A stretch of DNA of 63,703 bases, filler included, from Reclinomonas americana ATCC 50394 (GCA_048213135.1; 25 parts of 25 records of this genome joined end to end with filler, not necessarily neighbours in it), one strand, 5' to 3'. Counted from the first letter of the whole stretch, positions 7,126 through 21,703 are shown. Numbers and translations are program-made. The notes: generated from the letters alone by a model not told the origin.

Positions 7126-8011
7126 AACGTGTCTGCCTCTGTAGTAGATGCCAGCTTGTCACTAGTGGGCGGTTGCATGCGCGCGGACGCAGCAAGAGGC
7201 GTTGTTCTGCTTGCGTCGAGTCGATTTGAATCGATAAATCGCGCTGAGATATCGACATCGAATCAGTGATGCACCTGTTGGCAGGTCACAGAGCGTTTTC
7301 CACGCACGAGCCTGTGGTGATGCTCTCTGCTGGGCCATGCTGGCCATGGCTTGTGGACCGCATGCTGCAGTTCGAATTCTTACGGAGCGCAGCGCTGCGA
7401 AATTCATGTGACAACCGCCCCACTGCTTTTCGTGCTGTTAGCGTTCATGTCGGGACCCCACAATGCGAGAGTCATCATCCTCACAATGGTTGCCGTGTGG
7501 GGTGCTCGCAGCGACTTCGGATCCTCGATCGCACACCAAAGAGGAAAGCAATTTTTTGGACAGGCAACACGAGGGACCACGTTCCCAGCCAACCATCCTT
7601 CACATCGCAAGAGTGTGGCTTGACTCTCTGTGATGCGAATGCTTGCGTCACACCGCAGCGTGCGCTTGGCTTGTCCAAGCATCGAATATTCGGTGTTCGA
7701 CTGCATCAGACCGCTAAATCGTTGCTTTTGTATGTCGCCGTGAGAGCGCGCGAGTTACGCCGGCCCTCTGCCTCGCGTACCTTGGCATCCTTATCTCTCA
7801 CATGCGCCTGTGTGGGCGGCATGCAGGTGATTACCGCTCTCACGCTGACGTCGACACGCGTGTACCTCCAGCTCCCCATGGCGGCGTTGCCGACCAGCGC
7901 CACCACCNNNNNNNNNNNNNNNNNNNNNNNNNNNNNNNNNNNNNNNNNNNNTTAATTAATTAANNNNNNNNNNNNNNNNNNNNNNNNNNNNNNNNNNNNN
8001 NNNNNNNCCAT

Positions 8012-9432
8012 TGGAAAACAGGAAGGATAACTCTCTTGATGCGTTCGCTTCTGTCGACTTTCTCTCTTCGAAGAGCAAGCCACCTGGTCGGTACTCTCCT
8101 GTGGCGATCACGGAAAGCCTGTTCTCGTGCGTCTAGTCCGTGTGTGCTTTGTGTGTTGCTCGCTCCTGATTGTCACCGTTTCCCGCCTTTCTCATGCCGC
8201 CTTGCTCCGAGACGTCGTCCATCCCTCGCCAGGCTGCAACCAGCATCCCACATAGCATGCGGTAGTGTGAGCGACGTGGCTTCGATGGCGCGTGTGGGCC
8301 TTTGAAAACCGACAAGGGACTAGTCGATGAGAAATCGGCAAGGTGATGTGGCACGAGGTCGCGCTCCACTGCGTCGTGCATGCCCAGCGACACTTCATTT
8401 CGACTGGCCTGCATTCTTTGCCAAAGAGGACTGGAATGTCGGGCAGCATGGATACGCAGCTATGGCCCTATTGTGCTGATGCCACCGCAGAGCACATCAG
8501 AGAATCCAATGAGCACCGAGTCACCTCCTTGGATCGACCCACAGCATGGTTGATGATGGTACAAGGAAGAAAGAGAGTCACAAGGAATGGAAGAGGAGCA
8601 ACCAGCACGCAGCACAGCGACTGAAGTGGTAGCTGCGTCGTGAGGCTCGCCTCCTCTTACCCAACTCACAATCAACGCCTCGTGCCTTCAATCACACTCA
8701 CAGTCTGTCGGTGAATCGTGTCGCGTACGTACTGTGAAGCGCGGAACCACGTGTCTTCGAATGCCAGTGGCCAATCATTTGCCAGCACGCCTGTGTCCAG
8801 ATGATACACAGAACTGCGTCAGTCAATCTCCATGTCTCACCAACTTGCTCGTCAACGCAGATGCAGAACACGCACGCACCATGTGTTACTGGCCCAGCAC
8901 GAGACTGCAGTCTCCCATGGCCACCACCAGTGTCGCTCGGCAGAGACAGCAGCAACCAAGGTGCGCACACCATCAATCCGCTCCGACTTGCCAGCCGGGA
9001 TTCAAAAACGATCCACCGACCGGGCCACCATGTCGCACATTACGGCACGCATGTGTGCACCCACCCACGCCACGCACTTCATGGTATGCACGGCCTGCAT
9101 GAATGAGGTGAGTGGGAGGGAAGGACGAAAGAGCGATCACGAAGAATAGGGCCACACAACTGCTGAGTGCACGGAGGAATGCGAGTGGGGAGCCAAGTTA
9201 GTGAGGCAACACGCAACGGGCAATGCACCGCACGTCTGCAATCGTCATGGAACAACAACGACGAGCACGTGTCTTCAAGGCGTCCGCATGTCGGTGCGCA
9301 GTGAGCAAAGGAATGGAGAAAGGAGAAAGATGTCTGCTCTAGTCTCACTGACAAACACACCGATCAGCACCTGATACCAACACGCATTTGGTCAAGAGGC
9401 AAGCGAGGAACGTTTCTGCATCCAGACGTCCA

Positions 9433-9470
<38 letters not shown>

Positions 9471-10188
9471 GAGTCAGCATGTAGTCATGCCACCTCACAC
9501 ACTTCGGTGTCGGGATGCTCACCATAATGGACTGGCAGGATGGCAATCGGTGCATCATGAGCAGACCAGCATGCTTGGCCTCGAGCGTGTGCGGGAAGGA
9601 GGGGTGGATGACTGGAGAAGCAGATGAGCACACAGAGGAGAAAACGGCGGAGAAAGAGAGAGAAAGAGAGAGACTTTACAAGGGACAGAGAAGGAGGGCT
9701 CGAGAGCGGAATGACATGCATCCTGCAGAGCCGGAAAGAGACTGTCCGCGGCGCACAGGCACAATGAGAGGAAGAAAAGTGGGACCAAGGAGGTGCGCAA
9801 AGCAAGACGCGAAGAAACAATCATCGGTGATTCGCTCTCCTGAGGCACTCACATGGGCGACGAAAGATGCACGCCCAACAAACATCACAAAGAGACGAAA
9901 AAGACACAACAGACTGCCAAGTGATTCATCTCGCTCGCATACACAAATGGAGGTGAGAAAGAGGCAAGCATGCAGAGGGAGACATGCTTCACGACCGCAC
10001 ACTCCCATTCACATGATAGGGCAACAAGCACAGAGAACAATTCTGCATCATCAAAAACACCTCTGCCTTCCTCTGTCATCTCTCTTCCCCCACCTGCATC
10101 CCGCATGTTCACCCACTCTCCCTCGCAAGACACGGAAACAAACTCACAATCACTAGCAACCATCTGTCCCCACCTCGGACTCACCAAC
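8012..10188. repeat. Conserved ~2.2-kb intergenic unit of the WD40 tandem array (copy 1)
   Basis: Colinear similarity with 12843-15040, 15491-16603, 17769-19548/19649-19815 and 20969-21703. Shared blocks include gccagccgggatt(c/g)aaaacgatccacc, gatcagcacctgataccaaca and cacatgatagggcaacaagcac. An ATG at 8011 on the minus strand, at the contig edge, matches the start context of the copy at 12842. Confidence 0.9.
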
Positions 10189-19548: not shown

Positions 19549-19815
19549 NNNNNNNNNNNNNNNNNNNNNNNNNNNNNNNNNNNNNNNNNNNNTTAATTAA
19601 TTAANNNNNNNNNNNNNNNNNNNNNNNNNNNNNNNNNNNNNNNNNNNNAAACACAGAGAACAATTTTTCATCAATGACCTCACTCTCTTCCCCTGTCGTC
19701 CTCTCTTCCCCCACTTGCATCCCGCATGATCACCCACTCTCCCTCGCAAGACACGAACAACAACTCACAATAACCAGCAGCCACAACTCTCCCTCACTCC
19801 CTCCGACTCACCGAC

Positions 19816-20968
19816 TCAGCACCAGAATGAGACGACCTCGGCATCCTCAACGATAAAGCAGCGCAGAACCAGCTCGGGAAGGCATCGTGAATCTACTTCC
19901 TCCTCCTGCATCTCCTGCACAGCTCGCATGGCCGAGCGCGCGGCGTCGAGTTCAAGGCGAGCAAGGCCACGCGGTGTGGACCACACTCGCACCGTCCTGT
20001 CGTAGCCACCCGCACTCACAACGTGCAGACCATTGGGAGAGACGGCCACAGACGACGCCCATCCGTCATGTCCCTCCAACCATCGCTCTTCCTCGCCACT
20101 CACCAGAGACCACATCCGCACTGTGCTGTCCTTGCTCCCACTCACGACATGCTGGCCGTCGGGAGTAACAGCGACGGCGCGCACCCTTCCAGAGTGTCCC
20201 TCCAATCGTCGCACTTGGTCTCCACTTATCAGCGTCCATACCCGCACGGTGCAGTCTCCGCCCCCGCTTACGATGTGCTGACCATCTGGAGTAACAGCGA
20301 CTGACATCACCCAGTCAGCGTGTCCTTGCAACCGTCGCACCTCTTCCCCGCTCGCCAGCAACCACACCCGCACTGTGTTATCGTGGCTACCACTCACTAT
20401 ATGCTGATTGTCGGGGGTGACGGCGACAGACCACACCTTATCTGTGTGTCCCTCCAGCCGTCGCACCTCCTCGCCACTCTCCAGCGACCACACTCGTACT
20501 GTGCAGTCCCAGCTCCCACTCACGATGTGATGACCCTCAGGAGTGATGGCGACAGACATCACCGTGTCGGCGTGCCCCTCTAACCGTCGCACCTCTTCCC
20601 CACTCGCCAGCGACCACACACACACGGTACAGTCTCCACCGCCACTGACAATAAGCTGACCATCAAGAGTGACGGCGACAGAGAACACCGCGCCAGCGTG
20701 TCCCTCCAGCCGTCGCGCCTCCTTGCCACTCGCCAGAAACCACACTCGAATCGTGTTGTCCATGCACCCACCGACAATGTGCTTGCCATCGGGAGTGACG
20801 GTGACGGACCGCACCGAAGCGAGATTACGAATGATCTGTGTCGATCATTCGCGGTGAGACACACATGCACAAACACACAAACAACAACCACACACACGCA
20901 CGAGCACACGAATGCACGCACAGACACCAAACACGCAAAAGTGCGCACACTTTCACCTTTGTTGTCAT
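19816..20968 (-). CDS. Complete stand-alone 7-bladed WD40 protein with C-terminal box (gene E, 343 aa)
   Basis: Exon 1 20968-20957 (MTTK); intron 20956-20836; exon 2 20835-19816 (1020 nt) with 7 WD40 repeats and the conserved tail. Confidence 0.93.
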
Positions 20969-21703
20969 TCTCCGTGTGTGTGTGTGATTTGCTCGCTCAG
21001 GATTGTCACCGTTTCCCGCCTTTCTTGTCCCGCCTTGCTCTGAGACGTCGTCCATCGCTCGCCAGGCTGCAGCCAGTACGCCACACAACATGCGGTAGTG
21101 TGTGAACGATGTGGCTTCGTTGATGCGTGTGGGCTTTTGAAGACCGACACAGGACTCGTCGATGAGAAATCGGCAGGATGGACATGCTGGCGACACGAGG
21201 TTGTCGCTCCATTGCACCGTGCATGTCCAGCGACACTCTCTTTCGACTGACCTGCATTTTCTCTCGACAAGGACTGGCATGCCGGTCTGCTTGGATGTGC
21301 AACGTTGGCCCTGTTGTGCTGATGCCACAGCACAGCACACCCGAGAATCCAATGAGCACCGAGTCTTGAAACCTCACACGTCCTTGGATCGGCCCACAGC
21401 GAGGTTGACGAGGGCACGGCGAAGAAAGAGAGCCACACGGAACAGGAGAGGAACGACCAGCACAGCAGCAAAGCGATGGAAGAGGCAGCTGCGTCGTGAG
21501 ACTCGCCTCCTCTCACCCAGTCACAATCAATGCCTCGTGCCTTCAATCACACTCACAGCCAGTCGGTGAACCGCTTCATGCATGTACTGTGAGGCACGGA
21601 ACCACGTGTCTTCGCATGCCAGTCACTTGCCAGCACGCCTGTGTTCATGGCACACACCGAACTGAGTCAGCTGCAGTCTATCTCCGAGTTTCATCAACTT
21701 GCT
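20969..21703. repeat. WD40 array intergenic unit, proximal part
   Basis: Matches 17769-18430 and 8140-8850. Confidence 0.85.

Follow-up and report, generated by a model that had tools for sequence, protein, structure and literature searches.

A tandem family of stand-alone WD40 propeller genes with a hypervariable predicted top face and a constant C-terminal tail

Genes and spacers of the WD40 cluster

The window analysed here is a stretch of 63,703 bases from Reclinomonas americana ATCC 50394 (GCA_048213135.1) and consists of 25 contigs of 1.06-5.8 kb joined by 24 artificial linkers, each of 100 bases and of the form N44-TTAATTAATTAA-N44. Between positions 8008 and 21703 it carries copies of a small gene. 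They form a real, lineage-restricted tandem family whose products are stand-alone WD40 propellers; the top face of these is hypervariable, and their tail, which belongs to no known family, is constant. A tblastn search within the window confined the family to 5 of the 25 contigs, c3 (8008-10799), c4 (10900-12649), c5 (12750-15390), c6 (15491-19548) and c7 (19649-21703), which adjoin in the concatenation and all lie in one orientation; the genes and spacers described below are all on the minus strand. The linkers that flank or interrupt the WD40 region occupy 7908-8007, 10800-10899, 12650-12749, 15391-15490, 19549-19648 and 21704-21803, and another of the same form lies at 4618-4717. Any feature that seems to span a linker is artificial. 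A preliminary description of this DNA had presented the region as one continuous array encoding a candidate repertoire of non-self receptors.

The five gene ends and five gene starts reported in that description were all recovered, with stop codons at 10189, 12004, 15041, 16604 and 19816 and ATG codons exactly at 8011, 11123, 12842, 17768 and 20968. The gene model comprises a first exon of 4-5 codons, a GT..AG intron of 121-130 nt and a second exon that encodes seven 42-residue blades followed by a tail of ~55 residues. The ATG is followed after 9-12 nt by a GT donor in the four copies where this can be read; at 8011 the end of the contig leaves the ATG only. Three predicted introns are complete, those of gene D (130 nt), gene E (121 nt) and the gene that starts after gene B (125 nt), and all are in phase 0, rich in GT and end in ACAG. 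In gene E an in-frame stop lies directly 5' of the acceptor, so that splicing is required to reach the WD40 exon.

Two of the genes are complete. Gene D (16604..17768) has its first exon of 5 codons at 17754-17768, its intron at 17624-17753 and its second exon at 16604-17623, and gene E (19816..20968) has its first exon of 4 codons at 20957-20968, its intron at 20836-20956 and its second exon at 19816-20835; the second exon is 1020 nt long in both. Three further copies are represented by their 3' parts: gene A (10189..10799) with four blades, tail and stop, gene B (12004..12649) with blades 4-7 and a divergent, longer tail, and gene C (15041..15390), cut by the contig end, with the end of blade 6, blade 7, tail and stop. 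The 5' parts belong to the gene after A (8008..8011), of which ATG(G) stands at the extreme contig end, the gene after B (10900..11123; exon 1 11112-11123, GT..AG intron 10987-11111, exon 2 from 10986), whose second exon opens with blade 1 and is cut off where the contig ends, and the gene after C (12750..12842), in which the ATG at 12842 and 4 codons are followed by a GT donor, the contig ending ~80 nt into the intron. Gene B is the outlier: it is 65% identical to D, its tail ends differently and its spacer is unrelated to the 2.2-kb one. The reading frames are open in all five copies. A perfect splice-donor-like GGTGAGT lies 3-4 nt past the TGA stop in A, C, D and E, not in B; it could mark the donor of an intron in the 3' untranslated region or be conserved by chance. 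Plus-strand open reading frames (ORFs) of 150-210 aa lie antisense to the WD40 exons (for example 9970-10605, 11998-12453 and 17315-17848) and are the usual by-product of the codon composition of such repeats.

Contigs c3, c4 and c5 each hold the 3' end of a gene with its stop, a spacer and the ATG of a further gene on one strand, and c6 holds the complete gene D between two spacer copies that are 87.7% identical over 750 aligned nt, with a period of ~3.3 kb. Together with the divergence of the spacers, these arrangements establish a head-to-tail organisation. The unit of ~3.3 kb given previously is borne out as a gene of 1165 nt plus a spacer of 2177-2198 nt. The claim of a single continuous array stands for the head-to-tail organisation but not for a continuous molecule or a gene order, because that order crosses four linkers and comes from the concatenation or, at best, from a scaffold, and is not read from the sequence.

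The spacer between gene A and the next gene (8012..10188, 2177 nt) and that between gene C and the next gene (12843..15040, 2198 nt) are 80.8% identical over 2068 nt. The spacer downstream of D (15491..16603) reaches the contig end and is ~80% identical to the A and C spacers; the one upstream of D (17769..19548) also reaches the contig end and overlaps D's downstream spacer in the multiple alignment. The spacer after gene B (11124..12003; 878 nt) is short and, with ~0.53 identity to the 2.2-kb spacer, unrelated to it. Pairwise identity between the A, C, D and E spacers is 80-88% over their whole length, which makes them far too diverged to be alleles. They look non-coding, with scattered indels, (CT)n and (CA)n runs and no conserved islands, and their identity is uniform at 0.7-0.9 per 60-nt bin except in the (CT)n run, where it is 0.53. 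None of 126 spacer ORFs of at least 50 aa matched a Pfam family at E <= 0.01, a limit below which shorter exons would escape. Hidden exons in the spacer were considered and rejected, given the uniform identity without conserved islands and the absence of Pfam matches among these ORFs.

It is extremely unlikely that the copies are an artefact of a single locus, whether as alleles, as variants of several strains sampled together or as chimeras assembled from short reads. The window does mix bacterial-looking contigs (GC content 0.60-0.68) with eukaryote-looking ones (GC 0.50-0.59, with microsatellites), contig breaks fall inside the repeats, and short reads are reported not to reconstruct such WD40 arrays correctly (PMC12222747). 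However, a single contig holds two spacer copies 12% apart, three contigs join a gene end to the next gene start, the spacers differ by 14-47% between copies, far above allelic variation, and the blades differ by 16-30% in nucleotides, enough for unambiguous assembly. The copies number at least five, and as many as eight should no 5' fragment come from the same gene as a 3' fragment. The intron of the fragment after C is divergent, which might also be true of the outlier B; the fragment after B is similar to D and E, and so is A. This pattern of likenesses would fit one scaffold broken within its repeats. Among sequencing runs, the only DNA run listed, X1 (share 0.05), yielded on 15491-19548 one 280-nt spacer contig matching 15940-16218 with 0 mismatches and, in addition, four short WD40-repeat contigs of other copies; X1 may be the sample from which the window derives. 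No RNA sequencing run was listed.

Propeller, variable positions and tail

Pfam WD40 (PF00400) matched the gene D protein with 267.9 bits (cut-off 27, E = 3.3e-82) over 6 stretches and the gene E protein with 247.1 bits (same cut-off, E = 1.3e-75) over 7 stretches, and both proteins match Pfam families of WD40 type only. As had been proposed, both complete genes encode exactly seven blades with a strict 42-residue period, blade 7 having one extra residue. An AlphaFold2 model of the gene D protein, built from a 12-row alignment, has a mean predicted local distance difference test score (pLDDT) of 91.1, with values above 95 over the propeller, 28 strands (7 x 4), a helix at 284-308 and a pLDDT below 50 for the last 22 residues. 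From the secondary structure of the model and canonical topology, the opening strand of the protein is of type 'd' and would complete blade 7, so that the propeller would close without an upstream domain. The closest solved structures are 5yzv and 2ymu (Foldseek TM score 0.81-0.82, root mean square deviation 1.0-1.1 A, 41-45% identity), followed by WDR5 and LIS1.

The differences between D and E are concentrated at six positions of the 42-residue repeat, 10, 11, 12, 14, 30 and 32. The earlier hand count over blades 2-7 is reproduced, with 26 of 36 such sites differing, as are the 33 differing sites elsewhere; the denominator of the latter is 216 and not 217 (Fisher p = 1.2e-11). When blade 1 is included the counts are 29/42 at the six positions and 42/249 elsewhere. 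The radical replacements noted previously (THI/ADW, R/W, S/W, W/R, G/K) were all found. With 19-22 blade copies per column, positions 12, 14, 30 and 32 each hold 8-9 residue types and have an entropy of 2.76-2.79 bits; the values for positions 11 and 10 are 2.03 and 1.57 bits, respectively. The only further column above 1.6 bits is position 40 (2.15), the remaining scaffold columns having 1.51 bits or less. The six-residue signatures differ in all 20 of the 20 complete blades.

In the secondary structure of the model, the d-a loop ends with positions 10-12, strand a has position 14 as its second residue, and the invariant Asp of the b-c turn stands between positions 30 and 32. By canonical WD40 topology the six positions would thus lie on the top face of the propeller; the d-a and b-c loops are stated to form this face in HET-E (PMC1805685). 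The proposal that the same positions vary in the HET-D/HET-E (HNWD) receptors of Podospora agrees with PMC12222747, which lists repeat positions 10, 11, 12, 14, 30, 32 and 39 as hypervariable, six of these seven being the ones found here. The seventh, position 39, is not variable in the window genes (Leu in 16 copies, Thr in 4, Ser in 1, Val in 1). In PMC1805685 and PMC2873952 the codon pairs 7/9 and 25/27 are named for Podospora, which correspond to 12/14 and 30/32 in our numbering.

The blades had also been described as having fixed identities. This holds between D and E for blades 1, 2, 4, 6 and 7, whose nucleotide identity outside the six positions is 0.85-0.92, but not for blades 3 and 5. 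Blade 3 has an identity of 0.81 between D and E, versus 0.84 to blade 4 of D, and blade 5 has 0.78, versus 0.82 for D5 to E3. Blade 7 is orthologous across all five copies, and no one-to-one counterpart exists in D or E for blades 4-6 of A and B. Within a gene, nucleotide identity among blades 2-7 is 0.69-0.84, and in a blade tree D3 clusters with D5 and B5 with B6. The off-diagonal likenesses and these groupings indicate that some internal blades were re-copied or exchanged after gene duplication.

The tail that follows blade 7 consists of a predicted helix and a conserved hydrophobic-acidic motif. Its amino-acid identity is 88-93% among A, C, D and E, and 29 columns are invariant in the alignment of the five window copies. 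Over the last 24 codons, six pairs of genes show 0-3 non-synonymous changes per ~54 sites versus 3.5-9.5 synonymous changes per ~18 sites, and the tail is held by purifying selection. A constant tail combined with a variable face is the design expected of adapters that bring substrates to a housekeeping complex, for example a ubiquitin ligase; in these the tail would be the docking box and the face would select endogenous substrates. We consider this very unlikely for the present family. No F-box or SOCS box was detected by Pfam at E <= 10 in four tails, nor in the whole D and E proteins. A search of PDB sequences with the tail profile at E <= 10 gave four weak matches only, three designed proteins and one uncharacterised, and no such adapter chain; the ESM Atlas gave no usable match, and the AlphaFold2 confidence below 50 for the end of the tail also speaks against a docking box. 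A resemblance of the C-terminal motif to the first F-box helix or a BC box found no support in Pfam, in PDB sequences or in the ESM Atlas, and the tail matched no Pfam family at all.

A profile of the five tails, searched against 1.84 billion cluster representatives, matched three proteins only, P0121, P0122 and P0123; all share blade 7 and the tail with the window family, and none has an annotated function. P0121 (tail-profile E = 7.5e-20) is a product of a Reclinomonas americana expressed sequence tag (EST), EP00694_P005839 in EukProt, covers blade 7 and the tail and is 65% identical to gene C; its origin from an EST implies that a member of the family is transcribed in Reclinomonas. P0122 (394 aa, E = 2.2e-08) has only 27% identity to D, yet the two align colinearly all the way from blade 1 into the tail; its blades are degenerate, it has no other domain and its tail is closest to that of gene B. 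The architecture of seven blades and a tail is thus old and stand-alone. P0123 has 147 aa and E = 2.2e-06. A microbial-eukaryote host, as proposed earlier, is supported by the spliceosomal-type introns needed to read the genes and by the Reclinomonas EST, the sole named relative; judged from these sequences, the lineage of the family is most likely jakobid.

Searches by other routes added no relatives. With exon 2 of D as the query, against proteins of 184-587 aa (8000 candidates scored, 3619 at E <= 0.001), no tail-bearing homologue was present among the matches listed, the best 120 of the 3619, which were generic WD40 proteins with identity of 60% or less. Tail relatives were confirmed for 0 of 176 pattern matches in JGI metagenome contigs and 0 of 67 in GTDB genome contigs. 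No published description of the family was found in the literature on WD40 genes of jakobids or Reclinomonas americana; the Gcp1-3 proteins of jakobids (PMC8134430) are Pex7-like WD40 proteins.

Selection at the variable positions and interpretation

Silent and non-coding divergence provide the yardsticks for the variable face. By the Nei-Gojobori method the D/E comparison gave a non-synonymous divergence (dN) of 0.71 at the variable sites and a synonymous divergence (dS) of 0.38 in the scaffold over all blades, and 0.51 and 0.21, respectively, over the five clearly orthologous blades; the scaffold dN/dS ratio (omega) was 0.25-0.47. The Kimura two-parameter distance between non-coding parts of D and E is 0.079 in the intron, 0.144 in the 5' spacer and 0.215 in the 3' spacer. 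In a neutral simulation at d = 0.215, 10.5 of 30 variable codons were expected to change and 17 had done so (P = 0.012). We also fitted a pairwise codon model to D and E, with two site classes, shared kappa and distance and F3x4 codon frequencies, and compared it with omega = 1 in a likelihood-ratio test; the model assumes equal silent rates and single-nucleotide steps. For blades 1, 2, 4, 6 and 7 the omega of the variable class was 2.61 (p = 0.0032) and that of the scaffold 0.40; for all blades the values were 2.31 (p = 0.00099) and 0.24, and for blades 2, 4, 6 and 7 they were 2.62 (p = 0.0065) and 0.37.

Several observations weigh against reading the variable face as an adaptively diversified surface. 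Synonymous divergence inside the variable codons is itself high (0.71-0.72 by Nei-Gojobori), and this means that mutational effects, short-tract conversion or multi-nucleotide changes could inflate the pairwise omega. At d = 0.30 the neutral simulation expects 13.4 changed codons against the 17 found (P = 0.13). The test for omega > 1 rests on one gene pair, D/E, in which blades 3 and 5 are not orthologous, and the assembly is fragmentary, with breaks inside repeats. A parsimony count over the 20 complete blades on a FastTree tree gave 78.8 non-synonymous and 25.2 synonymous changes at the variable sites, with a scaffold omega of 0.27; at the six positions omega was 0.81 with their own dS or 1.07 with that of the scaffold, and no single column had a significant excess of non-synonymous changes. 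This count is probably saturated at the variable columns. Finally, top-face positions are generally the least conserved columns of WD40 repeats.

The same observations bear on the possibility that the family is a redundant, recently amplified one in neutral decay, its fold kept against misfolding and constraint on the face lost. A parsimony omega close to 1 and a dS equal to dN within the variable codons would agree with such decay. We nevertheless regard it as unlikely, because the pairwise model rejects omega = 1 (p = 0.001-0.006), because the variable codons of the orthologous blades carry 35 changes per 90 nt, more than the raw divergence of 7-18% in intron and spacers, and because five frames are open, the tail is strongly constrained and the scaffold omega is 0.24-0.40. 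On our reading the rate of change at the variable face is no lower than that of neutral sequence, and the remainder is constrained. The preliminary description had named a dN/dS of 1 or less at the six positions among the outcomes that would refute it, and the result is divided, with 2.3-2.6 in the pairwise model but 0.81-1.07 by parsimony. A true omega above 1 is likely, and since the two estimates differ we grade positive selection as suggested, not proven.

The reading we prefer, with a probability of about 0.55, is that the five contigs derive from a head-to-tail cluster of diverged paralogs of one small gene that together would supply a repertoire of binding modules with a variable top face and a common tail. 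Each gene encodes a stand-alone seven-bladed propeller that its N-terminal strand closes, with a long helix and then a conserved C-terminal motif behind it. Purifying selection maintains the blade scaffold and the tail, and replacement of the residues in the d-a loop and b-c turn has matched or outpaced change at silent and non-coding sites. Each copy would in this way present a different top-face surface, and so may bind a different ligand, and the constant tail would couple all copies to one common partner or location. Diversity would come from duplication of the unit, from some exchange or re-copying of internal blades and from the faster replacement at the face. To describe the family as a receptor repertoire, as was done earlier, is reasonable.

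A narrower reading, built on the non-self proposal made at the outset, makes the cluster a repertoire for innate immunity or allorecognition. The top faces would recognise foreign molecules of prey bacteria, viruses or conspecifics in the manner of the HET-E/HET-D sensor domain, but separate genes would encode sensor and effector. This reading is possible but rather unlikely. It is consistent with hypervariability at the positions of the HNWD repeats (PMC12222747), with highly repetitive blades as in NLR sensors (5yzv, 2ymu; 0.69-0.84 identity within a gene), with a pairwise omega above 1 and with blade signatures that are distinct in 20 of 20 cases. Against it, position 39, variable in HNWD, is not variable here, and no NACHT, HET, TIR, death or other effector domain was found in the genes, in the spacers or in 18 long ORFs scanned in the other contigs of the window. 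Diversifying selection is, moreover, also seen in non-immune adapter families. The previous statement that the proteins have no NACHT or effector domain is supported by the WD40-type matches of D and E, by the spacer ORFs and by P0122. Nor was a HET or other N-terminal effector found, the predicted N-terminus having 4-5 residues before the closing strand and no upstream Pfam match. A split NLR-like system of a deep-branching protist, in which hypervariable stand-alone WD40 sensors, encoded as a tandem repertoire, would dock via the tail onto a separately encoded signalling or death module, appears quite unlikely. If it existed, sensor diversity could evolve by duplication and blade exchange with the effector untouched, and the immune-receptor architecture would be one undescribed in any eukaryote.

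The preferred reading, a repertoire of binding modules, matters in either outcome of the selection question. Jakobids are bacteria-eating, and little has been explored of their nuclear genomes. Adaptive diversification would mean that the sensor design extends to excavate protists, that a sensor-only architecture has been found, and that a small, tractable family (~340 residues, one fold) is at hand for asking which ligands such faces take up. Without adaptation, the locus would remain a clean case of scaffold-constrained, face-free evolution in a young tandem family.

The other contigs of the window are of mixed origin. Bacterial contigs at 24243-27200, 27301-29435, 29536-32520 and 62629-63703 encode an N-6 DNA methylase, a Zeta_toxin/AAA_33-like protein, a SulP permease with STAS and DUF2264, and probably derive from prey or contaminating bacteria of a xenic culture; c10 and c11 have in common a 231-nt stretch of 88.7% identity (27667-27897 and 30572-30802). 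A 638-residue frame with fibronectin type III repeats lies on the plus strand at 45817-47730, lacking a closed 5' end because the contig begins there and followed by a stop at 47731, in a contig of GC 0.64, and a 587-residue ORF that matched no Pfam family lies on the minus strand at 21909-23672 in a contig of GC 0.61. Runs of (CA)n, (GA)n or (GT)n, or C/T-rich runs, stand at the beginning or end of several eukaryote-like contigs (at 35626, 55876, 55976 and 50210), and the assembly seems to break at microsatellites as well as inside the WD40 repeats. No RNA gene was found in the whole window by Rfam at gathering thresholds or by ARAGORN.

Comparison with known systems

The closest known system is the HNWD/NWD family of Podospora anserina (HET-E, HET-D and HET-R; STAND/NLR). 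Both families have a 42-residue WD40 unit with a near-identical scaffold consensus, and in both the variation centres on the residues either side of a conserved Val in strand a and a conserved Asp in the b-c turn (positions 12, 14, 30 and 32), with positions 10 and 11 varying too. Both are multigene families with signs of blade exchange within genes, seen here in blades 3 and 5. The differences are as clear. The window genes lack HET and NACHT domains, and for this reason the family falls outside HNWD and resembles only its sensor half. The two complete genes have a fixed number of seven blades, which make one closed propeller, whereas the number of HNWD repeats is variable; blades 2-7 are 69-84% identical in nucleotides, whereas HNWD repeats are near-identical. 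The window genes, unlike HNWD, carry a conserved C-terminal tail without known family and lie head-to-tail with 2.2-kb spacers, in a protist and not in a fungus.

Among adapter proteins, F-box/WD40, WD40/SOCS-box and MATH-BTB families combine a constant docking element with a variable substrate propeller and undergo lineage-specific tandem expansion. They differ from the window proteins, in which no F-box, SOCS or BTB was found, and the C-terminal placement of the constant element matches the SOCS-box type alone among them. The highly repetitive WD40 propellers of prokaryotes (5yzv from Thermomonospora; 2ymu) have the repeat consensus in common with the window genes, but they are domains of larger bacterial proteins, whereas the window genes are eukaryotic, intron-bearing and stand-alone and have a tail of their own. 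In NLR-type proteins of fungi and bacteria, highly repetitive WD40 repeats with a hypervariable top face are known as the sensor; here a sensor of this kind stands alone, with a constant tail, multiplied head-to-tail in a jakobid-like flagellate.

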